NCBI GenBank assembly: GCA_963718895.1
Contig: CAVRAG010000008.1
Span: forward strand, 256,001 to 320,000
Source of the DNA: an uncultured Nitrososphaerota archaeon
Lineage (GTDB): Archaea; Thermoproteota; Nitrososphaeria; Nitrososphaerales; Gagatemarchaeaceae
DNA: 64,000 nt
Reading direction: 5' to 3'
Positions within the stretch are counted from its first letter, which is position 1. Each line of letters begins with the position of its first letter. The position numbers were made by a program, and so were the translations under genes. Positions 28,487-53,046 of this stretch are shown piece after piece. The notes under the pieces are model-generated. The model worked only from the letters and a program-made list of their open reading frames with translations, ran no database searches and was not told the DNA's origin.

Positions 28487-28789
28487 CTATACTTTCGAGG
28501 CCTTTTCCTGGATCTTGTCGATCTGCGCCTGCCTGACTTCCGTGAAGAGGTTGCACCAATCGCGACCGGAGACGACGAGCTCGAATTCCTCCAGCTTGGA
28601 GTGGACGCACATGCCTCTCTCGAAGAGATCTGCGTTGAGCGGGTCGTTCGGCTTGAACCAGACGCAGGCGAGGCAGTTCTCGTATTGCCAGGTGATCCGC
28701 TTGAGACTCCTTTGCGGTTCGGGTTCTTCGTTCGAGACCATGGATGAAGGGTGGGAGCCCTTCTTACTTAAGGGCCACTCTCCGGTCAT
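28487..28789 (-). CDS. Small four-Cys protein with HiPIP-like spacing
   Basis: NCLACVWF...GMC...RDWC. The start overlaps the MFS stop (ATGA). Confidence 0.5.
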   Translation of the reverse strand: MTGEWPLSKKGSHPSSMVSNEEPEPQRSLKRITWQYENCLACVWFKPNDPLNADLFERGMCVHSKLEEFELVVSGRDWCNLFTEVRQAQIDKIQEKASKV

Positions 28790-30228
28790 GCCTCCTCGAC
28801 CACGATCACTTCAGGAGGGCTCCGCCTGCCCCGCATGAGGGATGGTATGATCGCCACGAGAAGGAAGCCCGTCGAGAGCAGAAAGACCAGGTGGATCGAA
28901 TTCATGAAGCTGGCTATCGAAGAGGGGGTCCCCGATCCGCTCACCCCCAGGAATATCTTCACGAGGCTGTTCACCGGGGTGACCGTGGCCATGGCGAGAA
29001 AGGCGACCGCCAGACTGAGCGTAGAGCCAAGGTTCACGAAGGTGGTGCTGATCCCCGAGGCTATGCCCCTGGCCTCGGGGGGAACCGAGTTCATTATCGA
29101 CGCCCTGTTGGGCGAGGCGAATATGCCCATCCCGCTCCCGACGAATATCAGCGGGAACGCCAGCCCGAGGAAGGACGTCCGGGGGCCAATCTGGGTCAGC
29201 ATCACGAACCCCACCGACGAGACGAGCAGGCCTACCGACGAGAGGAGCCGGGCCCCGTACCGGTCTGAGAACCAGCCGCTGATGGGGCCGAAGAAGGCCA
29301 GCGAGGCCGAGGTTGGGATCAAGAACAGGCCTGCCGTGAAAGGGCTGAGCTGCATCGAGGGGCCCTGCAGGTAGAAGACGAGGACCAGCGTGACAGCTCC
29401 CCTTGCAAGCGAGTTCAGGACGATCGCCAGGTTTCCCGCGGCGAACGCCCTGATTCTAAACAGGGAAAAGGCGAGCATCGGCATCTGGACCTTCGTCTCC
29501 GTGATGAAGAACGCCACGAGTAGCACCACGCCGAGACCGAGCAGCAGGTATGTGGTGAGCGCGTCCAGCCCGGCTATGATGTTGAGCGTCATTCCAACGA
29601 GGATCGAAGAGAGTCCGCCGGCGAGGGTCAGGTTCCCGATGATGTCGATCTTTTGCCCACGGCGCGGCTGGCTGAGTTCGTGCAGCTTGTAGTGCGACCA
29701 TGCGGTCGCGAAGATCCCGATCGGGACGTTCACCCAGAAGATTGACCGCCAGCCGATTGTCTGGGTGAGGACCCCACCCAGGACGAGTCCGGTCACCGCC
29801 CCAGCGACGATGGACGTCTGGTTGATCCCCAGGGCCTTCCCGCGCTCGTTGGCCGGGAAGGCGTCCGTGAGGATGGCGGCGCTGTTGGAGAAGAGGAACG
29901 CAGAGCCTGTGGCCTGGACCATCCTGAAGAGGACGAGCTCGAGGCCGGACTGGGAGAGGCTGCATAGCGCGGATCCGATAGTGAAGATCGCAAACCCCAG
30001 GTTGTACAGCCTCACTCTCCCGAACATGTCCGAGAGCCTTCCGAAGTTGACGAGGACCGAAGCCGTGATGAGCTGGTATCCTAGGAGTGTCCAGACCAGA
30101 TCGAAGAGCGTTGTCTGCGGGAGGTCCTTGCCGATGGTGGGCAGCGCTATCAGGACTATGTTGGTGTCCAGAGACGCCATCAGGGTGCCGATGGTGGTGT
30201 TGGACAGCGCAACCCACTTGTATTGCAT
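28786..30228 (-). CDS. MFS DHA2-type efflux transporter
   Basis: GRLSDMFGR, ERGKALG, WRSIFWVNVPIG; about 14 TM helices. Confidence 0.9.
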   Translation of the reverse strand: MQYKWVALSNTTIGTLMASLDTNIVLIALPTIGKDLPQTTLFDLVWTLLGYQLITASVLVNFGRLSDMFGRVRLYNLGFAIFTIGSALCSLSQSGLELVLFRMVQATGSAFLFSNSAAILTDAFPANERGKALGINQTSIVAGAVTGLVLGGVLTQTIGWRSIFWVNVPIGIFATAWSHYKLHELSQPRRGQKIDIIGNLTLAGGLSSILVGMTLNIIAGLDALTTYLLLGLGVVLLVAFFITETKVQMPMLAFSLFRIRAFAAGNLAIVLNSLARGAVTLVLVFYLQGPSMQLSPFTAGLFLIPTSASLAFFGPISGWFSDRYGARLLSSVGLLVSSVGFVMLTQIGPRTSFLGLAFPLIFVGSGMGIFASPNRASIMNSVPPEARGIASGISTTFVNLGSTLSLAVAFLAMATVTPVNSLVKIFLGVSGSGTPSSIASFMNSIHLVFLLSTGFLLVAIIPSLMRGRRSPPEVIVVEEA

Positions 30229-30306
30229 CCAAGAGTGCGCATCAGGTCAGGATTTCTCCCTTTCGCACCATCGAGGGCCGGGAGGACTGGGCGGCTTCGT
30301 CCCGCG

Positions 30307-32002
30307 TCACATGGGCGTGACGGTTGGCGTCTCCTCGACCTTCTTCTGCGAGGCTTCGGCCGCCATCTTGCGAGCGAGCAGCTGCTGCTTCATCGAACCC
30401 TGGAACATCAGGCCGGCGAGCACGGCCGCGACTCCGATTATCACCCCGGCCGAGAAGAGCGGCGTTATCGAGGCCACGAAGGCCACCCTGAGCTGCGGGA
30501 CCAGGGGTGAGAGCGCAGGGTATGTGGTCAGGAGGCTCTGCAGCGCCTGTGGGGACGCGAGGAGCTGTCCGGCCAGGTTGGCGTTGCCGAGGTACTGGGT
30601 CGCCAGCTGCTGGTACTGGGCAGGGACCTGGGCGAGCACGCCAGATACCTTCGAGGCGAACGTGTTGACCTGGATGGTCCCCAGTATCGCCAGCCCTATG
30701 GTACCTCCGAGGTTCCCCATGAACTGGGGAAGCGAGGAGGCTATGCCTATCTGCTTCCTCGGCGCCGAGTTCTGGATGGCGAGGAAGGTGGGGGAGAAGG
30801 TCGTCCCCACCCCGAACCCTGTGAGAGCGACCGATTCCATGATCTGGACCGTCCCAACCGTCGCATCGAAGAACGTCAGCGTGTAAGCGCCGATGGTGGC
30901 GAGGACGAGTCCGACGACGGTTATGGTCCGGTAGGGCAGCCGAGTGACGAGCGTCCCGCCTACGACAGACCCGACTATCATCGGAAGGAGGAAGGCGTCC
31001 AGAATCTCGCTGGAGGTGTTGATCGAGAGCCCGAGTCCGGCCTGGACGAAGAGAGGGATGTAGGAGACGACGGCCAAGTAGCATGAGGCCTCTCATGAAC
31101 GAGACCCCCGAAGATGAGGCGATGTTCCTGACCTTGAAGAGGCTGAGCGGAAGGACCGGTTCAGGCGACCGCCTCTCTATCTCTATGAAGGCCACGAAGA
31201 GAGCGGCAGAGCCCCCGAAGAAGAGGGCCTCCTCCCAGGAGTACCATGGATAGGTCGAGCCGCCGTTGAGGAACCCGAGGTCGAGCAGCGCGATCCACCC
31301 GGCGAGCGCCGGGATGCCGAGCCAGTCAAGTTTGGGCTTGACCAGGCTCTTCGACTCCGAAAGGCCCGCCAGCAGGAGCACGATCGAAGCAATCCCCAGG
31401 GGGAGGTTGATGTAGAAGACCCAGCGCCAGCTTGTGATGTCGACGATGTAGGTGCCGACCGAGGGTCCGAGCACGGACGCGATGCCGAAGACGCTCGAGA
31501 AGATCCCGGTAATCCGCCCCCTCTGCTCAGGGGCGAAGGTGACTCCCGCGATGCTCAGGGCAATGGGGAAGAACGCCCCGCCGCCCAGCCCCTGTACCGC
31601 CCTCGAGAGTATCAGCTCGTCTATGTTCTGCGCGGCTCCGGAGGCGATGGAGCCGGCCATGAACACTATGAGGCCGAGTATGAAGAACCGTCTCCTCCCG
31701 TAGAGGTCGGAGAGCTTGCCGAAGATTGGCATGGCGACCGTCTGCGCCAGGATGTAGGCGCTGAAGACCCAAGCGTACAGGTTGAGGCCCCCGAGGTCCG
31801 AGATTATCGTCGGGCCCGCGGTCGCCACGATGGTCTGGTCGAGGGCGCCCAGAAGCAGCCCCGTCATGAGGCCCGCGATGATCAGGATGAAGTTTCTTCG
31901 TGGAATGGTCTGGGTCGGCGAGAGCGCCGAACCCGATGCCGACTGGCCCGGTGGCGCGCTACTGCCGCTTCCCTCGCTCATGGGTGACTGTGACTCGGTC
32001 AA
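30307..32002 (-). CDS. MDR/DHA2-type MFS transporter (frameshift near 31075)
   Basis: ALDQTIVATA, GKLSDLYGRR, WRWVFYINLP; continues in ORF 30307..31077. Confidence 0.88.
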
Positions 32003-32135: not shown

Positions 32136-32504
32136 TCAGCTCAGCTTCACGAATTGCTGTGATTCTGTCAGGGGTGTGACCACGACGGCCGTCCCGAAGG
32201 CTATTATCTCGTCCATGGTGTTACCGATCTCCGTCGAGTCGAACATCACACTGATGACGGCGTTCGCCCCTATCTTGCTCGCCTGGTCTGCGAGCCGGTC
32301 GAGAGCCTGCTGCCGCGCCTGCATGGCCATCTCCGTGTACTCGTTGATCTCGCCTCCTTTGAGCGTGCGAAGACCCGCCATGATGTTCCCGCCGATCCCC
32401 CGCGACCTGACGGTTATTCCGTACACCAGGCCCAGGACTCTGTCGACCTTGTATCCGGTCACGTAGTTGGCGGTCAAGAGAATTGGTTTGCTCGGTGCAG
32501 ACAT
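32136..32504 (-). CDS. ybjQ: YbjQ/UPF0145 family protein
   Basis: GLVYGITVRSR, GGEINEYT, GANAVI, AFGTAV. Confidence 0.88.
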   Translation of the reverse strand: MSAPSKPILLTANYVTGYKVDRVLGLVYGITVRSRGIGGNIMAGLRTLKGGEINEYTEMAMQARQQALDRLADQASKIGANAVISVMFDSTEIGNTMDEIIAFGTAVVVTPLTESQQFVKLS

Positions 32505-32625: not shown

Positions 32626-34494
32626 TCAGGTCGGACCGGTCTTTCCGTCGAGCGTTGCGGTGAGGAGTCCGGGGGACGCCAGGTACTTCTGCATGCCCTC
32701 GGATGCGATCTGGACCTGGGGACCTGCGATGTGGGTTCCGGATGGGACGGTGTCTCCGGTCGTGTTGTTGACCTCGCCGGCCGCGAAGAGGTTCGGCGCC
32801 ATCCAGGCCTGCTGCCACCCGTTGAATACCGAGGAAGACGCGCTGGAACCCACCCTGTTCCCTCCTCTCCAGTGGTGCCCCCACCAGTCGGTGTGGGCCG
32901 AGAAGGGCGGGACCACGGTCCCTCCGTTGCTGATGCCGGTCGCCCCCATCTTGTTCAGGAACGCGATGAACGGTGCGTTGCCGGGGCTCGAGGCGAAGTA
33001 TGACGCGCCGAGGTAGCCGTTGGGCGTCCAGTCGTGGGTGATCCTCGCGCACGGGTCTCCCCATGCGTCGACGTAGTGAGGGTCGAGGTCCCAGTAGCTC
33101 GTGGTGTTGGGAAGGTCCGGCGCCACGCCTCCGAAGCCGACGCGCCCGGCCGAGCCGCCTGTGTTGTACTTGTTCTTCTGGGCCGCCTTGAACGTGCTCC
33201 CCTGGCTGCCCGCGCTGACACCGCCGGCTGTGTTCAGGTTTCCGGGTCCACCCCCTCCGTAGCCGCCCGCGCTCTGCTGAGCTCCGCCGATGAAGTTCAG
33301 CCCCGTGTGGTCGAAGTTGTCGTCCATGAAGTCGTAGATGAAGGTGTCCCCGCCCGCCGCGTTGCCGGCCGGGAACGAGTTGAGGCCCATCCCGGCGACC
33401 GAGCCGGACGGACCGCCCGTCGAACTGTATGTCCCGTAACCATAGGTGAGGCCTCTGCCGACCGATCCGGTAACAGCGGTGGGGTCGTAGGGAGCGCCGA
33501 CGCCCGAGATGAGCATCGACCTCGTCTGGTTGTAGCCCCACATGCCGTTGAAGAAGACGGTCCCCGGTTGGACGTGGATGTTGCCCTGGGCGTCATAGTA
33601 CCTGATATCCGCGATGGTACCGTCGGATTTGGTGTCCATCCTGAAGACCTCGCTGTTCAGGACCATCGTGAACTTCCCGGTCTTGATGGCAGCGGGGATG
33701 GACCTGAACGCCGAGTTGGCCTTGGCGCCGGTCTCGCACGGGTAGTTGCAGCTCGAGCCGCACCATCCGTCGTAGACGCACCCGTTAATCTGCACCCCGT
33801 AGGTGTTCATGTACGGCACGGAGGCGAGCGAGCTCACGTGCGGGCACGCGTAGTATCCTAGCGACTCGGCGGTGTCATGGAAGAGCTGACCGAGCGGCGT
33901 GAGCGGGTGGCCGGGCATCGGATAGTTCTTGCTCATTGGCATGGGCGAGCCGTTGACGTTGCCGTTGCCGTCTCCGCAGACGCCAAAAGCCTGCTCCCAG
34001 GCTACGTAGTAGGGCTCGTACTGCGCGTAGGTGAAGGGCCAGTCCTGGGTATCGTCGTTGGGGTTGATGGAAGCGAGGTGACCCGCGCCGTACCTGCTCG
34101 CCGTCGAGGAAGCCATGGTGAAGCCCCATGGGCCTGCCCTACCCATGTTCCCGCCGTAGTGCTGGGCCACTCCACCGACTCCCAAGCCGAGCGAGTGATA
34201 CTGGATCGGGAAGGTGGGCCTCCTTGCTGGGAGCGCGAACTGGTTGACATTGTTCCTGATCGTTGTTGTCTGGAGCGAAGCCGGGAAGTCGAACTTCCTC
34301 TCGAAGCCTATGCCCCACTCGTCGTACTTGTTGGACGCGAAGTCCACTGCGTAGTTCCAGTATGGGCCTCTGGTTACTCCTACCACGTTGTAGCCGGCCA
34401 GGGAGAGCTCGGCCGCGATGGTGCCGCTCATCACTCCGAGTCCCATTAGGACTACGTCTGCGGGCTTTTCCTGAATTACGGTTGACATCTCCAT
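32626..34494 (-). CDS. GMC oxidoreductase large subunit, gluconate 2-dehydrogenase flavoprotein-like (copy 1)
   Basis: DVVLMGLG, GVGGVAQHYGG, QDWPFTY, Cys cluster CVYDGWCGSSCNYPC, DLDPHYVDAWG, NLFAAG. No signal peptide. Confidence 0.85.
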   Translation of the reverse strand: MEMSTVIQEKPADVVLMGLGVMSGTIAAELSLAGYNVVGVTRGPYWNYAVDFASNKYDEWGIGFERKFDFPASLQTTTIRNNVNQFALPARRPTFPIQYHSLGLGVGGVAQHYGGNMGRAGPWGFTMASSTASRYGAGHLASINPNDDTQDWPFTYAQYEPYYVAWEQAFGVCGDGNGNVNGSPMPMSKNYPMPGHPLTPLGQLFHDTAESLGYYACPHVSSLASVPYMNTYGVQINGCVYDGWCGSSCNYPCETGAKANSAFRSIPAAIKTGKFTMVLNSEVFRMDTKSDGTIADIRYYDAQGNIHVQPGTVFFNGMWGYNQTRSMLISGVGAPYDPTAVTGSVGRGLTYGYGTYSSTGGPSGSVAGMGLNSFPAGNAAGGDTFIYDFMDDNFDHTGLNFIGGAQQSAGGYGGGGPGNLNTAGGVSAGSQGSTFKAAQKNKYNTGGSAGRVGFGGVAPDLPNTTSYWDLDPHYVDAWGDPCARITHDWTPNGYLGASYFASSPGNAPFIAFLNKMGATGISNGGTVVPPFSAHTDWWGHHWRGGNRVGSSASSSVFNGWQQAWMAPNLFAAGEVNNTTGDTVPSGTHIAGPQVQIASEGMQKYLASPGLLTATLDGKTGPT

Positions 34495-34500
34495 CAGCTC

Positions 34501-35757
34501 CTAGGGGGACCCCTTCTGGTACATCCCGAGGCTTACCGGTTTCAGGGTGATCGGCTTGGTCGAGACCATTATCTGCTTCGTGGTCATCCCCTCGCCGTAG
34601 AAGTTGCCCTGGTTCGCGCCGTTGAAGCCGGTGTAAGTCCAGCCGACCATGTTCCTGTTTCCGCCGTAGACCGGGTCCATGGCAAAGCCTGCCCACGTCA
34701 TGAAGAAGAGCTCGTATGCGAAGTCTGAGGGGAGGATGTTGCTGAACTGTGCGGCGGTCGGCTTGTTGCTCCACAGGTCGGTGAGGCACGCAGTTTGGTT
34801 CGCGGCCGAGAGTTTCTCGAAGTTTCCACCGTAGGCTGCGTTGGCGTAGGTCTGGATTCCTGCCAAGCTTAACCTCCAGAACTCCCTCTTGTTCCAAGTG
34901 TACTGGTACCGCGTTCCTGCTCCGACCCTAACGTTAGCGGTAGGTTGGTACTTGACCGTGTAGGTTGTGGTGCCTACGTTGTAGTTGACGGTTGCGCCGT
35001 TGTAGGTGACACCGTCGACTGTTATCGGTGTCGCGACGTTCGCGGCGATGTAGGGAGCGCCCACGTAGTTGTTACCGTCGTTCCCGTACATCCCCTTCAG
35101 CTGATGGTCTATGAAGTAGGCACATCCGGCCTCGGCCGCCCCGGGTCCACTGCTGTCCGTCGGGATGATCGCTGAGACAATCGCCTGAAGCTCGACCTGC
35201 TCGTTGGTGTTCAAGACGAGGAATACAGAGTCAGAGTCGACGCTGGTCTGGAGCGTCCCAACCTGAGATGTCAGTGCCGACACCTGCGAGTTCGCGCTTG
35301 TCACCGCCGAGTTCAACGATGTCACTTGGCCGTTGAGGGAGGTAATCTGGCCGTTGGCACTCGTGAGCGCCTGCTGGGTCGCAGTGAGCTGCGAGTTGGC
35401 GCTGCTTAGCTGCGAGGTCACTCCGGTCAGCTGCGAGTTGGCGCTGCTCAGCTGGGCCTGGGTCGACGTCAGCTGGTTGTTCAGCGAGGAGACCTGCCCC
35501 TGCGCTGAGCTGAGCTGAGATGCCGTGGAGTTGAGCTGGTTCTGCGTCGAACTGAGCGCCTCCTGGGTGGAGGAGAGCTGGTTCTGCAGAGATGCTACGG
35601 TGCTGCTCGAGTTGCTATTATTCGAACCTACCAGGCCGTTGTAGTATGCGACACTTGCAACGCCTGCCACTGCTGCGCCAGCGACAACGCCGGCGCCGAT
35701 CTTAAGGAAGGTCCTGCGGTCGCCCTCCTTACTGATTGGCTTCCCACTGTCAGCCAT
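34501..35757 (-). CDS. Gluconate 2-dehydrogenase subunit-3-like protein with Tat signal and coiled-coil stalk (copy 1)
   Basis: DRRTFLK plus hydrophobic helix, 17 heptads, then IIPTD..GPGA, YFIDHQL, DPVYGGNRNMVGW...GF. ATG 35757 matches the paralog; TATA box TTTATAAA at 35783-35790. Confidence 0.85.
   Translation of the reverse strand: MADSGKPISKEGDRRTFLKIGAGVVAGAAVAGVASVAYYNGLVGSNNSNSSSTVASLQNQLSSTQEALSSTQNQLNSTASQLSSAQGQVSSLNNQLTSTQAQLSSANSQLTGVTSQLSSANSQLTATQQALTSANGQITSLNGQVTSLNSAVTSANSQVSALTSQVGTLQTSVDSDSVFLVLNTNEQVELQAIVSAIIPTDSSGPGAAEAGCAYFIDHQLKGMYGNDGNNYVGAPYIAANVATPITVDGVTYNGATVNYNVGTTTYTVKYQPTANVRVGAGTRYQYTWNKREFWRLSLAGIQTYANAAYGGNFEKLSAANQTACLTDLWSNKPTAAQFSNILPSDFAYELFFMTWAGFAMDPVYGGNRNMVGWTYTGFNGANQGNFYGEGMTTKQIMVSTKPITLKPVSLGMYQKGSP
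35242..35598 (-). repeat. Heptad (21-nt) coding repeat, 17 units
   Basis: VASLQNQ LSSTQEA ... VGTLQTS. Confidence 0.85.
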
Positions 35758-35794
35758 CCGGCCTCGTGGTTCAGTTGTCATCTTTATAAATTAT

Positions 35795-35809
35795 GTGATA
35801 ATAAATCAC
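35795..35809. promoter_or_regulatory. Palindromic operator candidate next to the TATA box
   Basis: GTGAT-AATAA-ATCAC directly upstream of TTTATAAA. Confidence 0.45.
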
Positions 35810-36014
35810 TGCTTCTTGGAGAATTCCCCGTTTTTGGTCTGGATTTTCATGCTCTAATCCCACCCGCGATAGATTGTACCCGAGATCAGGACCAGATTCC
35901 TCCGTCTCCGAGCGGTCGGTGCCACGGGAACCCTGCAGGTCCATCTAAGGGAGGGATGACCAAGAGCTCGCATGAGCACAACTATAACTACAACTCGTCT
36001 GAGCCGAGGATTGT

Positions 36015-36362
36015 ATGCCGGACCTCTGGATGGGACCGAACTTATTCAGGTTCGAGCAGGTCGTGATAGAGCGCTTGATCAGCCCGGGGGAACCTGGGAA
36101 CTATGTTCTTGGATTCAAGGACGAGTCAGGCGAGTTCCTCCCCAGATTCATCGGGAGGTCTGACTCTGACCTAAGGGCGGAGATGACCGCCAGGCTCTCG
36201 ACCATGAACTACCCCTACTTCAAGTTCAGTTTGGCCAACCCGAAGTTAGCCTTCGAGACAGAGTGCGCCCAGTTTCACAACTTCCGCGGGCAGCTGGACA
36301 ACAAGACCCATCCGTCGAGGCCTGTCGGATCAGAACTCAAATGCTTCCTCTGCGGCCTCTGA
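36015..36362 (+). CDS. Small GIY-YIG-like hypothetical protein
   Basis: PGNYVLG...FIGRS pattern; C-terminal H...CFLC. Confidence 0.5.
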   Translation: MPDLWMGPNLFRFEQVVIERLISPGEPGNYVLGFKDESGEFLPRFIGRSDSDLRAEMTARLSTMNYPYFKFSLANPKLAFETECAQFHNFRGQLDNKTHPSRPVGSELKCFLCGL

Positions 36363-36374
36363 GCGCCGATCGGC

Positions 36375-36977
36375 TCAGTGGTCGTGGTGCTTCTGCAGGA
36401 CAGCGTCTGATACGAGTTTGACTCGGTCGAGCCAGCCCAAGCCTAGGTATAACTCGCTCTTCAGCGACAGAGGAACGAGCGGGAGCTTCCCGCCAGGGAT
36501 GTAGGTGTAGTCGGCGGTGTAGTCCAAGGGGTCACCCCACTCCCACTCGCCAACCTTGATCTGCTCGTCACCGTGTATCTCCACCTTGTACCCGTCGATG
36601 GTGAGTTCGGCGTAGTAGCTCTTTGTGTAGACCGGGAGCATCTTTCCATCTATGTCAGCCTCTTTCGTGAGCTTCCACTCGACCACCGCCGGCGCAAGCG
36701 TCAGATACTGGGCCAGCACCTTGCAGATCTCCTCGCAACCCTCTTTTGTTGTTAGTATCTCCAAGAAGTCGGGATTGACGTTCACGCCCATCATTACCTC
36801 GCCCGAATCACCGCCCACTGCCCACTTGGCCTTGACGTTGTTCCTAAGCCTCTCGAGAACCTTGGTCGCTGTCTTTAGGAGCGGTGCGGGCACTATCACT
36901 ACCTCATCCGGTTTGGGGACCCTGCTGTTGATTACGTCGATCTCTGGGGCCGGATTCTTTCTGGGCGCGTTGAGCAA
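36375..36977 (-). CDS. Degenerate nucleotidyltransferase-fold protein
   Basis: WAVGGDSG...GVNVNPDFLEILT resembles GGS...P-x-D-I-D-I of the Pol-beta NTase family. Confidence 0.5.
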   Translation of the reverse strand: MLNAPRKNPAPEIDVINSRVPKPDEVVIVPAPLLKTATKVLERLRNNVKAKWAVGGDSGEVMMGVNVNPDFLEILTTKEGCEEICKVLAQYLTLAPAVVEWKLTKEADIDGKMLPVYTKSYYAELTIDGYKVEIHGDEQIKVGEWEWGDPLDYTADYTYIPGGKLPLVPLSLKSELYLGLGWLDRVKLVSDAVLQKHHDH

Positions 36978-37115
36978 TTCTATCTATCGCTGGGTCCTTC
37001 GTCGGGGGGAGATATTAGCTCTTCTGGGGGACCATCGTGGAGCATCGTCCCTCTCTCCGGTCGGAGGAAAGGGTAGACTGTCGCCGTCGGCTTGTCACAG
37101 AACCGCCCTCGTGCT

Positions 37116-37286
37116 TCACTCGTTCTGATAACAATCGTGCGCCCACGTGCCGATATGAACCACGCAGAAGTCCTTCAGACACACAGTGCACTGGAAGACT
37201 TGTTTTGCGGGTTTCTCGGGGCCACAGAGATCGCAGATGAAAGATGGCTGCGTCTCCCCTGTTACTTCCGCCTCTTTCCCGGTCAT
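37116..37286 (-). CDS. Stand-alone AN1-type zinc finger (copy 1)
   Basis: C-x2-C-x11-C-x2-C-x4-C-x2-H-x5-H-x-C. Confidence 0.7.
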   Translation of the reverse strand: MTGKEAEVTGETQPSFICDLCGPEKPAKQVFQCTVCLKDFCVVHIGTWAHDCYQNE

Positions 37287-37534
37287 AGTATTGGGCAGAC
37301 TCGGTCTCTTAGAAAAAATTATCGGTCTTTCGACCAATCGCCGCGATGGGGCTTCAAGTCGACAGATGGGTTACCGCGCGGTCGGATATCCGGTGAAAGC
37401 ATCCTAGTTTAGGCAGGACGCCCGGCAAACAGATTTCCCACATTGCTGGAGGCGCTAGTCGAGACGCGAACACTCTTGCGTCGCCCGATGATCGAGTAGA
37501 ACTGGTTTGAAGCCGGGTTAACACGACCAGAATT

Positions 37535-37792
37535 TCATCCGGATACGCCAATTGACTGGGGCTTACCCAGGGCGCCGAAGCAGTAGTGCGCCATTGGGGC
37601 AAGATGTCTGACGCAGTAATTCAGCGTGCAAAGGGTGCACTGGAATACTTCCTCAACTGGCTTCTCTGGCCCACAGCACTCGCAGACGAAGGTTTGACGC
37701 CCCTTCGCAGGAGCGTTAGCGGGACCCGAGGTTTCGGAGGCGTCACGGTCTCCGGCCTTGGCTCCAACCGGGTCTGCTTGTTTCTCAGACAT
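37535..37792 (-). CDS. Stand-alone AN1-type zinc finger (copy 2)
   Basis: FVCECCGPEKPVEEVFQCTLCTLNYCVRHLAPMAHYC, paralog of 37116..37286. Confidence 0.7.
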   Translation of the reverse strand: MSEKQADPVGAKAGDRDASETSGPANAPAKGRQTFVCECCGPEKPVEEVFQCTLCTLNYCVRHLAPMAHYCFGALGKPQSIGVSG

Positions 37793-38154
37793 GACCAAAC
37801 GTCGAGTCACCGCACTAAATAAATCATGAGCCGTGGTTTCGAATTCGGGCCAGTGGCTCCGCGATCCTCACTCCGTCATCTAGGCTCCGGCGATTCTGAT
37901 GGCGGGGTCGCGGCGGACGGCGGCGGTACTCCGTTATTTCCAAGAGACCCGTTTAGGCTGTTGCAATTCATGCCTGCAGGGGTGGGATAACGGCGGAACC
38001 GTGAGCGCTCTCGGACTGCAGATCCTCGCCCAGGCGATGCGAGCTGAGAGTTGAGGTTCACCATTCAGAAACTGGCTCAGCAGCCAACTGCGAAGGCTTC
38101 ATCGAGACTCAGAGAACAACCAAGCGGACGGATCACTGGAGCTAAGAATCTTAG

Positions 38155-38190
38155 AAAATGAGGAAGAAAAGGTGCCTCGTTCAGGCACCT
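38155..38190 (-). terminator. Hairpin plus pyrimidine tract after GMC operon 2
   Basis: AGGTGCCT-N5-AGGCACCT (38170-38190) followed on the minus strand by TTTCTTCCTCATTTT. Confidence 0.55.
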
Positions 38191-38213
38191 CTCCTTTGTC
38201 GTCGCCTACTCGA

Positions 38214-40076
38214 CTATGCGAGTAGGCCGGGACTCTTCAAGTACATCTGTATGCCTTCGGACGCCACTTCGGACTGCATCCCTGCCTGGTGCGTCCCAGA
38301 TGGGACTGTGTCGCCCGTTGTGTTGTTGCATTCGCCCGCGGCGAACAGGTTCGGCGCCGTCCAAGACTGCTGCCATTTGTTGAATGTGGACGAGCTTGCA
38401 GACGAGCCCACCCTGTTACCTCCTCTGATGTGGTGTCCCCACCAGTCGTTGTGCGCTGAGTAGGGCGCTACGGCTGTGGTTCCTCCTGTGGAGATGCTCT
38501 GTGCGCCTAGCTTGTTCAGGATGGCAAGGAACGCAACGTTCCCGGCTGAGGATGCGAAGTAGGTGGCCGCCTGATAGGGGTTCGGAGTCCATTCGTGCGT
38601 TATTCTTGGTAGTGGGTCTCCCCAGAGGTCGCTGTAGTGCGGGTCGAGGTCCCACATGTTCATCGTGTTGGGAAGGTCTGGAGCCATTCCTCCGAAGCCC
38701 ACGCGGGCCGCGGTGCCGCCCGAAGTGTACCTGTTCTGAAGGGTCTTCTTGTATGCGCTGCCTTGGCTGCCAGAGCTCGCACCGCCGGCGGTGGACACGT
38801 TTGTCGGACCGCTCCCTGAGTAGCCTCCTGCTGACTGCTCGGAGCCTCCGATGAAGCTCAGCCCGGTGTGGTCGAAGCCGTCGTCCATGAACTCGTAGAG
38901 GGTGTAACCTCCGCCCCCGTTTCCTGCGATGGAGTTGAGGCCTAGCCCTGGGATTGAGCCGCTCGGGCCCGCGGTACCGGTGAACGGAAGGTAGCCGTTG
39001 GTGTAACCCCTTCCTACTGTCCCCGTGACCGTGGTGGAGTTATACGGGACGCCTACTCCTGAGTTCAGCATTGCTCTGACTTGGTTCCCGCCGTGAAGGC
39101 CGTTGAAGAAGGCGGTGCCTGGTTGGATGTGGACGTTTCCTGACGCGTCGTAGTAGCGGATCTGTGTGATCTTCCCTGTGCTGTCCGTGTCCATCCTGAA
39201 GACCTGGCTGTTCAGGGACAGGGTGAATTTACCGGTCTTGACCGCCGCTGGGACGCTTCTGAAGGCCGAGTTGCCCTTGGCACCGGTCTCGCAGACGAAG
39301 TTGCATCCTCCGCCTGTGCACCATCCTTCGTAGACGCAGCCGTTGATCTGGACGCCGTACGGGTTTACGTAGGGTTCAGACGCTAGCGAGCTCGTCGACG
39401 GGAATGGGTTGTAGCCCATCGCCTCAGTGGTGTCATGGAACAGCTTTCCGAGGGGCGTGTCTGGGTGGCCGGGAAGAGGATAGTTCTTGCTCATTGCGAT
39501 CGGGGTGCCGCCGGCGGCGCTCCCGATTGAACCTCCGCTCCCCGTGCTTCCGGCTCCATTGCCGCTCAGCCCGAAGTTCTGCTCCCACGCCGTGTAGTAT
39601 GGCTCGTACTCGGCGTAGGTCATCGGCCAGTCCTGGGTATCGTCGAACGGGTTGATTGACGCGAGGAAACCGGCTCCATATCTGTTCGCCGTGGATGAGG
39701 CCATTGAGAAGCCCCACGGACTGTTTCGGCCCATTGCGCCGCCGTAGTGATGCGCCGCTCCGCCTACCCCCAATCCGAAGTTGTGATATTGGATCGGGAA
39801 CGTCGCACGCCTGACCGGGAGAGCGAACTGGGTGTTGTTGTTGCGAATCGTCTGGGCTCCCCAGGAGTATGGGACGTCGAACTTCCTTTCCCACTGGATG
39901 CCCCATTCGTCGTACTTGGTGGTCGCGAAGTCCGTGGTGTAGTTCCAGTATGGACCCCTCGTGACCCCCGCGACCTTGTACCCTGCAAGGGTAAGCTCGG
40001 CCGCGATTGTCCCGCTCACTACCCCGACGCCCATCAGGACGACGTCGGCCGTTGGTTCCGTTATTACAGTGGACAT
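38214..40076 (-). CDS. GMC oxidoreductase large subunit (copy 2)
   Basis: Full-length paralog of 32626..34494; CVYEGWCTGGGCNFVC, WWGHHIRGG. Confidence 0.85.
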   Translation of the reverse strand: MSTVITEPTADVVLMGVGVVSGTIAAELTLAGYKVAGVTRGPYWNYTTDFATTKYDEWGIQWERKFDVPYSWGAQTIRNNNTQFALPVRRATFPIQYHNFGLGVGGAAHHYGGAMGRNSPWGFSMASSTANRYGAGFLASINPFDDTQDWPMTYAEYEPYYTAWEQNFGLSGNGAGSTGSGGSIGSAAGGTPIAMSKNYPLPGHPDTPLGKLFHDTTEAMGYNPFPSTSSLASEPYVNPYGVQINGCVYEGWCTGGGCNFVCETGAKGNSAFRSVPAAVKTGKFTLSLNSQVFRMDTDSTGKITQIRYYDASGNVHIQPGTAFFNGLHGGNQVRAMLNSGVGVPYNSTTVTGTVGRGYTNGYLPFTGTAGPSGSIPGLGLNSIAGNGGGGYTLYEFMDDGFDHTGLSFIGGSEQSAGGYSGSGPTNVSTAGGASSGSQGSAYKKTLQNRYTSGGTAARVGFGGMAPDLPNTMNMWDLDPHYSDLWGDPLPRITHEWTPNPYQAATYFASSAGNVAFLAILNKLGAQSISTGGTTAVAPYSAHNDWWGHHIRGGNRVGSSASSSTFNKWQQSWTAPNLFAAGECNNTTGDTVPSGTHQAGMQSEVASEGIQMYLKSPGLLA

Positions 40077-40088
40077 CTCAATCAGCTC

Positions 40089-41441
40089 CTACGGGGACCC
40101 CTTCTGGTACTGACCGAGGCTCGCTGGCTTGAGTGTGATTGGAGTAGTCGCGACCATGAGCTGCTTCGATGTGTATCCTTCGTTGTAGAAGTTGCCCAGG
40201 TTCACGCCGTGGAACCCGACGTAGGACCAGCCGACCATGCCCTTGTTGCCACCGTAGACTGGGTCGACCCAGAAGCCGTTCCACACCATGAAGAACAGCT
40301 CGTATGCGAAGTCGGATGGAAGTACGGCTCCGAACTGCGTTCCTCCCGGAACCCCTGCTGCCGGAGAGTTGACGCCGTTGATTACTTCTTGGTAGCCGCC
40401 CGCAGCTCCACCTGTTATGGCACCACCGGCACCGTCGTAGGTCGGCTTGTTGTTCCATAGGTCGGTGAGACAGGCTGTCTGATTGGCAGCGGAGAGGGTC
40501 TCGAAGTTTCCGCCGTAGGCGGCGTTGGCGTACGCCTGGACTCCTGCTAAGCCTATCGTCCAGAACTGCTTCATGTCAAACGGGTACTGATAGCGGCTGC
40601 CTGCGCCGACCCTGACGTTGGCGGTCGGGGGGTACTTCACCGTGTATGTGTTGGTTCCGTTCTTGTAAGTGACGGATCCTCCAGGGTAAGTGATTCCATC
40701 CACGGTTATTGAGGTCGCCACGTTCGAGGGGATGAATGGTGCACTTCTGTAGACGAGCCCGCTCGTCCCATATGTGTTCTTGAGCTGGCGGTCGATGAAG
40801 TAGATTGCGCCCGCCTCCTTGGCGCCGGGTCCGGTGCTGTCAGACGGGATTATCGCTTCACAGATTGCCTCCAGTTCCACCTGCTCCGTTGAACTTAACG
40901 AGAGAAACGCGCTGTTCTCGTCGAGACCGGCTTGGAGGGCCGAAACTTGGCTGGTCGCGCTTGTCACAGCCGAGTTCAGCGATGTGACTTGGGTGTTTAG
41001 GGAGGTGATCTGCCCGTTCGCGCTCGAAAGCGCCTGCTGGGTCGCCGTTAGCTGAGAGTTCGCGCTCGTTAGCTGAGAGTTCGCGCTGCTTAGCTGTGAG
41101 GTCACTCCGGTCAGCTGCGAGTTGGCGCTGCTGAGCTGGGCCTGGGTCGAGGTCAGCTGGTTGTTCAGCGAGGAGACCTGCCCCTGCGCTGCGCTGAGCT
41201 GAGATGCGGTCGAGTTGAGCTGGTTCTGCGTAGAACTGAGCTGCTCCTGCGTGGAGGAGAGCTGGTTCTGCAGAGAGGCCACCGCGCTGCTCGAACTACT
41301 ACTGTTCGAGCCTATCGCGCCGTTGTAGTATGCCACTGCTGCAACACCCGCTACGGCGGCACCTGCGACAACGCCGGCGCCGATTTTGAGGAAGGTTCTT
41401 CGATCGCCTTCCTTGGTCATTGGCTTGCCACTGTCAGCCAT
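40089..41441 (-). CDS. Gluconate 2-dehydrogenase subunit-3-like protein with Tat signal and coiled-coil stalk (copy 2)
   Basis: DRRTFLK, 17 heptads, IIPSD..GPGAKEAG, FIDRQL, DPVYGGNKGMVGW. Confidence 0.85.
   Translation of the reverse strand: MADSGKPMTKEGDRRTFLKIGAGVVAGAAVAGVAAVAYYNGAIGSNSSSSSSAVASLQNQLSSTQEQLSSTQNQLNSTASQLSAAQGQVSSLNNQLTSTQAQLSSANSQLTGVTSQLSSANSQLTSANSQLTATQQALSSANGQITSLNTQVTSLNSAVTSATSQVSALQAGLDENSAFLSLSSTEQVELEAICEAIIPSDSTGPGAKEAGAIYFIDRQLKNTYGTSGLVYRSAPFIPSNVATSITVDGITYPGGSVTYKNGTNTYTVKYPPTANVRVGAGSRYQYPFDMKQFWTIGLAGVQAYANAAYGGNFETLSAANQTACLTDLWNNKPTYDGAGGAITGGAAGGYQEVINGVNSPAAGVPGGTQFGAVLPSDFAYELFFMVWNGFWVDPVYGGNKGMVGWSYVGFHGVNLGNFYNEGYTSKQLMVATTPITLKPASLGQYQKGSP
40926..41282 (-). 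repeat. Heptad (21-nt) coding repeat, 17 units
   Basis: VASLQNQ ... VSALQAG, including a tandem duplicated (L)xSANSQ unit. Confidence 0.85.
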
Positions 41442-51273: not shown

Positions 51274-53046
51274 CTAGGCCCAGGGGTTCTCGGATGAAGC
51301 GTTCGAGCCCGAGATGCGCCCGAAGGCTATCATCTGTGCGTTGTTCGCTCCGAGAGAGAGCATCCCGTCGGTCGAGCCGTTCTCGCCCGCCGCGTATAGA
51401 CGCGGGATTGGGTTATTGTCTGCGTCGCAGATCTGGCCCTTCTCGTTGCGGACCGGACCTCCGAAGGCGCTCGGACCGCCCGGCCAGAGCGGCATCGCGT
51501 AGAACGGAGGAGACACGATCGGGATTAGCGCGGACTTTGGCCTGCCGAACTGGGTATCGACGCCAGAAGAGCAGAAGCCGTTGTAGTTGTTGAGGGTCGC
51601 CTGAAGGGTGGCGGGGTTGATGTTGACCGCCGTGTTGGCCGCTGGACTGCTGTTGTTGGTGCCCGGGGTCATTCCGACGTAGGCAGTGCTGTTCATCGCC
51701 GCGACCAGTGTCGGTACGTCCTTGCCCGACTGTATCCAGCCTCTTGCGATCTCTGAGCTGTTGTCCGAACTCCACGCCGGGCGTGGGTCGAGATACACCG
51801 GAAGTTGGCCGTTTGAGCCGCTGGTGATCGCCCCCGCCTTCCTGCAGGTCTCATCAAATATGATGAAACTCGGGATGCGGGTGTACTGAGGCACAGTGAG
51901 GTCGAAGTCAGACAGCTTGATCCACCAGTTGTGCGAGTACGTCGAAATCTCAGTCTCGTCAGCGTAGCGGTTCCCGTACTTGTCGACGTAGATCCACCCG
52001 TGCTGTGACGGGGCGCAGGTGCTGAACGCAATTGGATACTGAGGGAACCAGGGGACCATGCGAGCCGACATGGCGCCCATGTGCCACATGGCCGCGCCGA
52101 CCTTGGACGCCATCGTGACGCTGTCGCCTGTGCAGAACTGCCACCCGTAGAAGTGGGCGGGATAGACCCTCATGTTGTCCGCCTTCAAGGTCTCGTTGTA
52201 TTCGATGCTTCCCGTTGTGAGGACCACTCCCCTCTTCGCCTGTATGTTGAGCACCTCGCTGTTGTTGGCCATCGCCTGGACTCCGAGAATCTCTCCTGTA
52301 GTCGGGTCTTGGAACAGGTCAGTGGCCGGCGTGTTGAAGAGGATGGGTATGTTTCTTTTCTGGACGAGCGCGTCGAGTTGCTGGAAGAAGACGTTGCCGC
52401 TTGCCAGGGACATCCCCCCGAAGCCCAGCGCTCCGCCGGGAAGGTTCGGGAACTCACCCGTGGTTGAGCTCGTGGTGTACTTGATTCCCATCTGAGTGAG
52501 CCAAGCGGGGTTCTCGACCTCCATCCAGGCGAGAGCCTCGCAGACCGCCATAGGGGTGTTTCCCCAGGACTGCTGGTAGATGTAATTCGCCCCGTTCAAC
52601 GGATCTTTGACGTAGGTGGCGTTGCCGGCGTTCATGGAGGTGTTGCCGCCGCCGCCCGTGATGGTGGGGTTGGCGACCCCGAGCGCGGCGTAACTGGGCG
52701 TCTTCTCGAGCACGAGGACGTTGGCTCCGGCGTCATAGGCGGTGATTGCGGTGACGGCTCCTGCCCCTCCGTAGCCTACCACGACCACGTCTGCAACCTG
52801 GGACCAATTCTCCGGCAGCGGGAGAGGAGCGGCTCTGCTGATGACCCTGCTGACCTTTCTAGTGCCCCTTACCTCGGCTATTCCCCTGGCGGACGCTGCG
52901 CCAAGCGCTGATGAAGCGAACTGTGGTTTGAGGGCGGAGGCAGCAATTGTGGTGCCTCCGATTGCCGCTGCTCCAATGGCAGCGGTACCCAAGAAGCTCC
53001 TTCTTGAGACCCTGACGTCCTTGAAGCTGCTCTTATCCTGAGTCAT
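51274..53046 (-). CDS. Tat-signal FAD_binding_2 flavoprotein, flavocytochrome c / ketosteroid dehydrogenase-like (copy 1)
   Basis: SRRSFLG, DVVVVGYGGAG, VLEK, GGNT, IPRLYAAGE, AFGRISG. No CxxCH motif. Confidence 0.88.
   Translation of the reverse strand: MTQDKSSFKDVRVSRRSFLGTAAIGAAAIGGTTIAASALKPQFASSALGAASARGIAEVRGTRKVSRVISRAAPLPLPENWSQVADVVVVGYGGAGAVTAITAYDAGANVLVLEKTPSYAALGVANPTITGGGGNTSMNAGNATYVKDPLNGANYIYQQSWGNTPMAVCEALAWMEVENPAWLTQMGIKYTTSSTTGEFPNLPGGALGFGGMSLASGNVFFQQLDALVQKRNIPILFNTPATDLFQDPTTGEILGVQAMANNSEVLNIQAKRGVVLTTGSIEYNETLKADNMRVYPAHFYGWQFCTGDSVTMASKVGAAMWHMGAMSARMVPWFPQYPIAFSTCAPSQHGWIYVDKYGNRYADETEISTYSHNWWIKLSDFDLTVPQYTRIPSFIIFDETCRKAGAITSGSNGQLPVYLDPRPAWSSDNSSEIARGWIQSGKDVPTLVAAMNSTAYVGMTPGTNNSSPAANTAVNINPATLQATLNNYNGFCSSGVDTQFGRPKSALIPIVSPPFYAMPLWPGGPSAFGGPVRNEKGQICDADNNPIPRLYAAGENGSTDGMLSLGANNAQMIAFGRISGSNASSENPWA

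Follow-up and report, generated by a model that had tools for sequence, protein, structure and literature searches.

Acid soils and peat are rich in Gagatemarchaeaceae (Group I.1c Thaumarchaeota), an uncultured family whose energy sources have therefore been inferred from genomes alone. Here we analysed a 64,000-nucleotide (nt) stretch from an uncultured member of this family (positions 256,001–320,000 of contig CAVRAG010000008.1, GenBank assembly GCA_963718895.1; hereafter the window), which carries two paralogous operons for a putative flavoprotein dehydrogenase, each with a gene for a small subunit (S1, S2) followed directly by a gene for a large subunit (L1, L2). An earlier reading made from the letters of the window (the sequence-only reading) had assigned these four genes to two operons, and its coordinates proved right, with all four on the minus strand. 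It had described the operon as a two-gene unit, which was too narrow: a third conserved gene, ORF200, belongs to the module, as its homologues hold a conserved position after related L genes. S1 and S2 are 70% identical, the same value as for L1 and L2. The features of the locus are collected in Table 1.

Table 1. Features of the two dehydrogenase operons and their surroundings (window coordinates; nt, nucleotides; aa, amino acids; ORF, open reading frame; AF2, AlphaFold2; FAD, flavin adenine dinucleotide; Fe-S, iron–sulfur; NTase, nucleotidyltransferase; MFS, major facilitator superfamily)
Feature	Position	Strand	Description
S1 small subunit	34501-35781	minus	ORF of 426 aa from the first ATG; PF13618
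S1 twin-arginine motif RRTFLK	35701-35718	minus	R14, R15, F17, L18 and K19 invariant in 45 relatives
S1 hydrophobic segment FLKIGAGVVAGAAVAGVASVAYY	35641-35709	minus	Tat h-region or proposed signal anchor; 19-residue Kyte-Doolittle mean 1.81
S1 stalk	35239-35595	minus	Residues 63-181; 17 heptads, 119 residues; continuous helix in AF2
S1 gamma (Gluconate_2-dh3) domain	34504-35229	minus	About 240 aa; Pfam
L1 large subunit	32626-34494	minus	Signal-less putative FAD/Fe-S dehydrogenase, 622 aa; 6 nt after S1
L1 Cys cluster CVYDGWCGSSCNYPC	33736-33780	minus	C239, C245, C249, C253; proposed Fe-S site and predicted ORF200 docking site
L1 motif DWWGHHWRGG	32860-32889	minus	Contains putative catalytic His H541; alignment to BcGDH His476
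S2 paralogous small subunit	40089-41441	minus	450 aa; stalk at 40923-41279
L2 paralogous large subunit	38214-40076	minus	620 aa; 12 nt after S2; 70% identical to L1
ORF200, third conserved gene	36375-36977	minus	NTase-fold protein by prediction, cytoplasmic-looking; follows L2
Small Cys-rich protein	37535-37810	minus	91 aa, between L2 and ORF200; weak zf-AN1 match, Pfam E 0.0047, below cut-off
YbjQ-family gene	32136-32504	minus	Directly after L1; PF01906 E 3.2e-34; syntenic in 7 related loci; context only
Two MFS transporter genes	28786-32002	minus	After YbjQ; Pfam; syntenic in 6 related loci; context only

The two small subunits share one layout, in which a short polar N terminus is followed by the motif RRTFLK, a 23-residue Gly/Ala/Val-rich hydrophobic stretch, a Ser/Asn-rich link, 17 heptads and a domain of approximately 240 residues. 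All the parts named in the sequence-only reading (RRxFLK, a hydrophobic stretch, a 119-residue run and a gluconate-dehydrogenase subunit-3 domain) are present, and the last of them matched PF13618 (Gluconate_2-dh3) at 80.2 bits in S1 and 73.8 bits in S2, above the cut-off of 23.4; the S2 domain contains a 32-residue Gly-rich insert. The Pfam TAT_signal model scored 20.4 bits on the small subunit, under its cut-off of 22.7, and TatC, of the twin-arginine translocation (Tat) system, is encoded in the same genome. By homology, the small protein bears a gamma ('hitchhiker') domain and a twin-arginine motif. The start of S1 is likely the second ATG, at 35757, which gives MADSGK and a protein of 418 aa, the length of the database gene call (P0121). 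A TATA-like sequence, TTTATAAAG, directly abuts the first ATG, and S1 would be translated leaderless from M9.

The large subunits carry no signal: the N terminus, DVVLMGLGVMSG, opens on a GxGxxG Rossmann motif in which G18, G20 and G24 are invariant, and L1 residue 10 aligns with residue 7 of chain 6a2u_B. Searched on its own, L1 matched the alpha subunit of the FAD-glucose dehydrogenase of Burkholderia cepacia (BcGDH; 8hdd_A, E 1.3e-10; 6a2u_B, E 2.1e-10) over residues 10–351 only, and a profile of 24 relatives matched the large subunit of Gluconobacter fructose dehydrogenase over its full length (8xcn_A, E 8.2e-30, positions 9–590 against 7–542), as well as the BcGDH alpha subunit (6a2u_B, E 1.4e-22). 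At E ≤ 0.01, Pfam recognized GMC_oxred_C in 14 and GMC_oxred_N in 7 of the 24 relatives. The earlier description of a signal-less GMC flavoprotein with a Cys cluster therefore stands for the lack of a signal and for the cluster, and for L1 and L2 the GMC label is backed by PDB and profile homology rather than by Pfam.

The residues that matter in the bacterial enzyme can be followed into the archaeal family. The BcGDH alpha subunit is reported to hold a 3Fe-4S cluster in a loop with Cys213, Cys218 and Cys222, to bind FAD covalently through His105 and to use His476 in catalysis. L1 C245, C249 and C253 align with Cys213, Cys218 and Cys222, with a fourth Cys, C239, upstream; the spacing is Cx5Cx3Cx3C in L1 and Cx5Cx4Cx3C in L2, and the four Cys, together with H112, H541 and H588, do not vary among the 24 relatives. 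H112 aligns with His105. H541, the second His of WWGHH, aligns with His476, and the motif around it is conserved family-wide, so that the active site had been called unusual with too much emphasis: by alignment, WWGHH is a family-specific variant around a conserved His and not a foreign element. Homology thus identifies the large protein as a putative FAD enzyme of GMC-like fold, with a His for covalent FAD attachment, a four-Cys putative iron–sulfur loop and a putative catalytic His.

ORF200 is a recurrent companion of this enzyme. Its homologues occur in 54 of 77 related loci, usually 30–60 nt after L, and stand within 1.5 kb on the same strand after 50 of the 74 L genes that have at least 800 nt of downstream DNA. 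ORF200 itself matched no Pfam family and has no hydrophobic N terminus; some of its homologues carry PF10706. Its AF2 model (predicted local distance difference test, pLDDT, 89) found, in Foldseek, the Thermotoga putative nucleotidyltransferase TM1012 as top match (2ewr, E 9.3e-14; template-modelling score 0.84 on the target, 25% identity), followed by LnuA and ANT(2''). The fold is shared with these proteins, but the ORF200 family has no invariant DxD/DxE catalytic acidic pair among 32 relatives, always stands beside the dehydrogenase and is predicted to bind it. The residues that are invariant in the 32 relatives are W52, G56, A107, W145, W147, G148, P169, L180, G181, W182 and D184.

Prediction of an L1–ORF200 complex scored 0.82 in three runs, and the best of three controls scored 0.00. 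That mark was attained by 116 of 157 solved complexes and by 2 of 215 mismatched pairs, counts that hold only roughly here because we used our own alignments. Between the runs, contacts agreed to at least 86% and the partner pLDDT was at least 88. The predicted interface joins L1 residues 226–245, 254–255 and 267–282, which include the Cys loop, to the N-terminal tail of ORF200 (residues 9–31). The model supports binding of ORF200 to the putative Fe-S loop of L1, and we know of no like complex in the PDB. In BcGDH, it is the gamma subunit that is reported to pack against the same Cys loop, and ORF200 may therefore be either a cytoplasmic placeholder or assembly factor, or a third exported subunit. 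The position between the large-subunit gene and ORF200, which in the window is taken by the small Cys-rich protein, is likewise occupied in loci L001, L002, L003 and L009.

The module is present in many copies in these acid-soil archaea, and the genome that holds the window (3.13 Mb, 80.5% complete) encodes six paralogous S–L pairs. A scan across all species genomes found the 77 related loci, every one in a metagenome-assembled genome; by record name, 42 are Bathyarchaeota or Bathyarchaeia, 26 are Nitrososphaer*, Thaumarchaeota, Gagatemarchaeum or Nitrosopumilales, 4 are other archaeal and 5 are bacterial. The closest is from Candidatus Gagatemarchaeum stordalenia, at 91% identity. S lies directly upstream of L for 59 of the 60 related L genes with enough flanking sequence. 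In metagenomes, more than 400 relatives of the large subunit and 307 of the small subunit were found. For the gamma domain, relatives numbered 916 representatives at E ≤ 0.001. When 200 sampled genomes of the same class were searched with L1, the window's own genome alone contained the gene. Among public sequencing runs, no RNA run was listed as containing the sequence, and the best DNA run contained 0.22 of the words. In the sixth paralogous large-subunit gene (G000:C3:17206-18991, plus strand, equal to locus L081; G000 denotes the window's genome), L1 matched in two pieces that overlap at residues 335–343, apparently in different frames, and this gene is possibly frameshifted; the small subunit of this C3 paralogue combines a short coil with an N-terminal extension, also long, ahead of RR.

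Between the hydrophobic segment and the domain of the small subunits lies the putative stalk. In S2 it spans residues 55–173 in 17 uninterrupted heptads, and in both proteins position 7 of the heptad is L, V or I and position 3 is A, T, L or V. Each 119-residue run contains 76 S/T/N/Q residues and one charged residue. A strict hydrophobic register extended over 19 heptads, against a maximum of 8 in 20,000 shuffles of the same residues. AF2 modelled S1, from 45 relatives, with a single continuous helix at residues 53–178 (418-aa numbering; mid-helix pLDDT 80–90), followed by a globular domain, and the best PDB matches of the stalk are trimeric coiled coils, namely the P22 tail needle gp26 (E 1.8e-6), the S-layer protein SlaB (8qox_B, E 9e-6) and reovirus sigma-1. 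The heptads, the shuffle control, the predicted helix and these matches together bear out the coiled coil proposed in the sequence-only reading, as a predicted long helix with coiled-coil register. A coiled coil rises by 0.1485 nm per residue, which gives a computed stalk length of 17.7–18.7 nm for 119–126 residues.

The length and make-up of this spacer vary across the family. In the 57 related small subunits that have an RR motif, RR and the domain are 46–178 residues apart, and at least 110 in 17 of them; the spacer is either a coil of 2–19 heptads or a poly-Thr/Ser linker (P0364–P0366). Five long-stalk paralogues in the window's genome (window 34501-35781 and 40089-41441; G000:C8:83560-84786, C8:87026-88246 and C7:656971-658323) are 80–91% identical to one another over anchor and stalk (77–86% in DNA), and only 51–69% over their gamma domains. 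This pattern suggests concerted evolution or gene conversion, or else a constraint that the rods have in common, for instance the formation of mixed oligomers. The uncharged stalk was also considered as a general module of the genome and rejected as such, as an all-frame scan for at least 8 such heptads returned only the five gamma-like subunits and one surface protein. Within the window's genome, the long uncharged rod is specific to gamma-like small subunits. The surface protein, the sole other protein in the genome with such a coil, is 1362 aa long (G000:C8:681061-685146, minus strand) and has, towards its C terminus, approximately seven uncharged Ser/Thr/Asn heptads followed by a C-terminal transmembrane helix.

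The resemblance to SlaB offers a scale for the rod. 8QOX is described as a trimeric-pore model of the Sulfolobus S-layer in which the 132-residue C-terminal helix of SlaB forms a trimeric stalk between membrane and canopy, and a SlaB homologue is reported for most Nitrososphaerota. Both helices are long, nearly uncharged and rich in Ser/Thr/Asn/Gln/Leu, and lie near a membrane anchor (putative in the small subunit), with a direct sequence match (E 9e-6) over approximately 100 residues. SlaB has a C-terminal anchor and Ig-like domains that hold the canopy, whereas the archaeal small subunit has an N-terminal Tat-motif anchor, as proposed, and enzyme cargo. Judged by sequence, then, the stalk is an analogue of SlaB and not a member of its family, as only the coiled coil is alike and the domain order is reversed. 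Because the enzyme rod (126 residues) is about as long as the SlaB helix, we infer that the enzyme would sit under or at the S-layer canopy rather than beyond it; the sequence-only reading had placed it at or beyond the S-layer.

We next consider where the electrons would go. The sequence-only reading had pointed to the absence of an adjacent CxxCH gene, and no convincing one lies nearby: the only candidates in 20000-54000 are three single-CxxCH stop-to-stop frames, all of which overlap S or L genes in other frames. It had also named a conserved cytochrome c partner as a finding that would count against it, and none was found in the window, in the 77 loci or, by Pfam domains, in the genome. 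PF00034 and PF13442 gave no match in the genome, which is 80.5% complete; in the 77 loci, every ORF has at most one CxxCH, and genome-wide a single frame, of 94 aa, has two. With no cytochrome c partner found, a different acceptor is needed. Two exported Cys-rich repeat proteins, in which CxxCH stands in a common context, were examined as hidden cytochromes and set aside, as they match no Pfam family and look like beta-repeat proteins.

Blue copper proteins recur near the related operons. The genome has 11 plastocyanin-like genes, two of which adjoin, divergently, two of its own six paralogous operons, and in other genomes 10 of 54 S genes with enough flanking sequence have one or two plastocyanin-like genes within 140 nt upstream, all divergent. 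Most of the plastocyanin-like proteins that we looked at have a hydrophobic N-terminal segment, a long Ser/Thr-rich linker and then the copper domain. In a FastTree phylogeny of 58 large subunits (54 near-full-length sequences of the related loci plus 4 of the 6 encoded in this genome, with partial genes excluded), L1 and L2 belong to a clade of 9 tips (support 1.0) that is sister to an 8-tip clade with adjacent cupredoxin genes (joint support 1.0), and the next outgroup is the genome's own third paralogue, also cupredoxin-adjacent (0.97); the order of events is tentative because the tree is midpoint-rooted. At the oxidase end, a CoxII-like ORF (G000:C7:268213-269328, minus strand) that lies beside COX1 (C7:266806-268158) is fused to a C-terminal plastocyanin-like domain. 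Tethered blue copper proteins are the best candidate acceptors, for the window's operons by relatedness and not by adjacency. Two further observations concern this group of genes: a separate anchored plastocyanin-like gene lies at C7:265068-265769, and the one by the third paralogous operon (G000:C8:88478-89029, plus strand, equal to L080:3479-4030) opens with approximately 70 Thr/Ser and has no hydrophobic anchor in its open frame, so that its true start may be in another frame.

These data lead us to propose that the window holds, in two paralogous copies, an archaeal counterpart to the bacterial flavoprotein dehydrogenase complex (of the fructose/glucose/gluconate-2-dehydrogenase type), with a Tat-anchored stalk and cupredoxin acceptors, a reading that we regard as probable, if only just. 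The folded, cofactor-loaded large subunit would cross the membrane through Tat by riding on the small subunit, whose hydrophobic h-region would be retained as an N-terminal membrane anchor. The 119–126-residue uncharged helix would then form a parallel coiled coil, probably a SlaB-like trimer, and hold the enzyme beneath the S-layer, at a height of approximately 18 nm over the membrane. Electrons would pass from the substrate (perhaps a sugar, polyol or alcohol) to FAD and the Fe-S cluster, from there to plastocyanin-like copper proteins, which long Ser/Thr linkers would tether to the membrane, and finally to the haem–copper oxidase, where the gene for subunit II itself carries a plastocyanin fusion. 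ORF200 would bind the Fe-S loop of the large subunit, most likely as a cytoplasmic assembly or export-proofreading factor.

The proposal takes its outline from the bacterial FAD complexes (BcGDH, 6a2u/8hdd; Gluconobacter fructose dehydrogenase, 7w2j/8xcn; gluconate 2-dehydrogenase), in which a small gene with a Tat motif likewise lies directly upstream of a signal-less FAD subunit that is homologous over its full length to the archaeal L family. The archaeal loci differ from them in lacking a gene for the multihaem cytochrome c (beta) subunit, in having four rather than three Cys of the Fe-S type (three in BcGDH), in their archaeal host, in the extra NTase-fold gene and in that L1 and L2 miss the Pfam GMC models. 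The small subunit has 418–450 aa in the archaeon against a reported 168 aa in BcGDH; it adds a 119-residue coiled coil to a gamma domain that is twice as large as the bacterial one.

Rieske iron–sulfur proteins offer a parallel for the proposed anchor, as these cofactor-bearing redox proteins keep their twin-arginine signal uncleaved, in the form of an N-terminal transmembrane helix. They sit at the membrane in a complex, with no spacer and with a cofactor of their own, whereas the archaeal small subunit would have both a spacer and a piggy-backed partner.

Several observations weigh against parts of this proposal. On the side of homology, L1 and L2 match no Pfam family at E ≤ 0.01 (only ApbA appears, at E 0.1), and NCBIfam gave nothing useful; Asn519, of the His/Asn catalytic pair of BcGDH, aligns with P584 in a low-scoring ungapped stretch, with an invariant GTH (H588) four residues on. 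No match between the gamma domain and solved gamma subunits could be detected: in the PDB, a profile built from 45 small subunits met coiled-coil proteins only, and the complete S1 model, which the long helix dominates, gave no Foldseek match at E ≤ 0.001. The predicted ORF200 interface overlaps the region that the gamma subunit occupies in BcGDH, and ORF200 may be either a permanent third subunit or a transient chaperone. For electron transfer, no cupredoxin gene adjoins the window's two operons, which are linked to such genes through sister clades only. The genome also encodes a CcmF/CcsA-like haem-handling protein (G000:C7:555247-557313, minus strand; PF01578, E 1.6e-18; WGGYWSWDP motif), and this gene, together with the 80.5% completeness, leaves room for a c-type cytochrome elsewhere.

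The objections to the anchor itself make up an alternative in which the Tat signal is cleaved after SVA or AVA, the complex is soluble or trapped by the S-layer, and the coil only oligomerizes the enzyme or docks it on another envelope protein. S1 (SVA|YY) and S2 (AVA|YY) satisfy the −3/−1 rule for signal peptidase, and a compatible site lies right before YY in most close orthologues as well; the h-region is Gly/Ala-rich like ordinary Tat signals, with no helix and pLDDT < 50 in AF2; and in BcGDH, the 47-residue signal of the gamma subunit is reported to be cleaved. Against cleavage stands the variation within the family, where small residues at −1 and −3 are not conserved and many relatives have V, T or I at −1, next to the polar region. 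Long, conserved N-terminal extensions of 85–100 residues stand ahead of RR in some members, among them the C3 paralogue of the window's genome. Poly-Thr spacers of similar length replace the coil in relatives, and a spacer of tunable length is sensible only between two fixed ends, as fits a retained anchor.

Two further points concern the membrane itself. The 19-residue Kyte-Doolittle mean of the hydrophobic segments, 1.8–1.95, exceeds the usual transmembrane threshold of 1.6, and an enzyme in free solution would be lost from an archaeon, which has no outer membrane. We consider cleavage unlikely on balance. The uncleaved anchor claimed in the sequence-only reading thus has indirect support: the poly-Thr spacers and the extensions before RR fit retention, and the SVA/AVA-YY site and the lack of a predicted helix in the segment speak against it.

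A second alternative concerns the acceptor and supposes that the enzymes resemble fungal oxidases of the AA3 type, hand their electrons to O2 and produce extracellular H2O2 (as might serve to attack plant polymers) with no protein acceptor. In its favour, the GMC superfamily contains many oxidases, and no acceptor gene adjoins the window's two operons. However, the four Cys, which are invariant, align with the loop whose Fe-S cluster lets electrons leave the dehydrogenase complexes, the nearest relatives of known structure are dehydrogenases, and cupredoxin genes do adjoin the operons of the sister clades, which together make this alternative quite improbable. Slimmer still is the chance that a cytochrome c or other carrier encoded elsewhere takes the electrons, or that a bent or flexible stalk lets the enzyme reduce quinone directly, with the cupredoxin adjacency unrelated: the CcmF/CcsA-like gene with its WGxxWxWD motif, the incomplete genome and the presence of adjacent cupredoxins in only 10 of 54 related loci would allow it, but PF00034 and PF13442 were not found in the genome, the 94-aa frame is the single one genome-wide with two CxxCH, the two exported CxxCH repeat proteins match no cytochrome family, the 77 loci have no multi-CxxCH ORF, and a rigid 18-nm helix would hold the Fe-S cluster far from the membrane.

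If the Tat-anchored dehydrogenase with copper acceptors is accepted, a bolder version can be drawn, which we put forward tentatively and think doubtful as a whole. In it, the module would be an 'elevated' front end of respiration: a SlaB-like trimeric rod with an uncleaved Tat anchor would display the FAD/Fe-S dehydrogenases approximately 18 nm up, just under the S-layer, where soil sugars and alcohols first arrive; the rods, near-identical in sequence in five of the six paralogues, might be mixed; copper proteins that swing on long Ser/Thr tethers would ferry the electrons back to the oxidase; and the NTase-fold protein would be a new kind of chaperone for Tat proofreading, covering the Fe-S loop up to the time of export. 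Such a system would be a copper-based, spatially extended counterpart to the periplasmic oxidation systems of acetic acid bacteria. Among the papers listed by our literature searches on archaeal gluconate 2-dehydrogenase and GMC proteins, we found none that describes the architecture of these operons, and supplements to PMC10640624 may list the genes. Nor did we find in those listed a small subunit that bears a rod and a signal anchor, an NTase-fold partner or a cupredoxin link in place of cytochrome c.

What these operons would add to the biology of soil archaea follows from their homology to the dehydrogenases with which acetic acid bacteria oxidize sugars and polyols in the periplasm. The three-gene module, expanded six-fold in this genome, appears to be rebuilt for the archaeal envelope, with no cytochrome c found, a candidate blue-copper link, a tunable rigid spacer and a new accessory protein. 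If the proposal is true, it provides a testable route by which soil archaea would oxidize organic carbon incompletely outside the cell. The rod would be a natural case of an enzyme held at a defined height above the membrane, and ORF200 a candidate for a new class of Tat-substrate assembly factor.

The surroundings of the operons yielded some minor observations. The synteny of the YbjQ-family and MFS genes with related loci is weak evidence of function because the relatives are close kin. The MFS gene next to YbjQ (30242-32002, minus strand) is split by a frameshift, with its N-terminal half in frame 30242-32002 and its C-terminal half in 30307-31077; relatives such as L005 have an intact ORF that matches both halves, and the split gene is either a pseudogene or an assembly error. 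Between ORF200 and S1, a 115-aa ORF (window 36015-36362, plus strand) matches no Pfam family and is found at 72–82% identity in L001, L002 and L003, and in part in L006 and L067. Farther along the window, two paralogous FAD_binding_2 flavoproteins of 590 and 613 aa are encoded at 51274-53046 and 59452-61293 (both minus strand); their Pfam domain begins only at residue 82–86, so that both carry an N-terminal extension.

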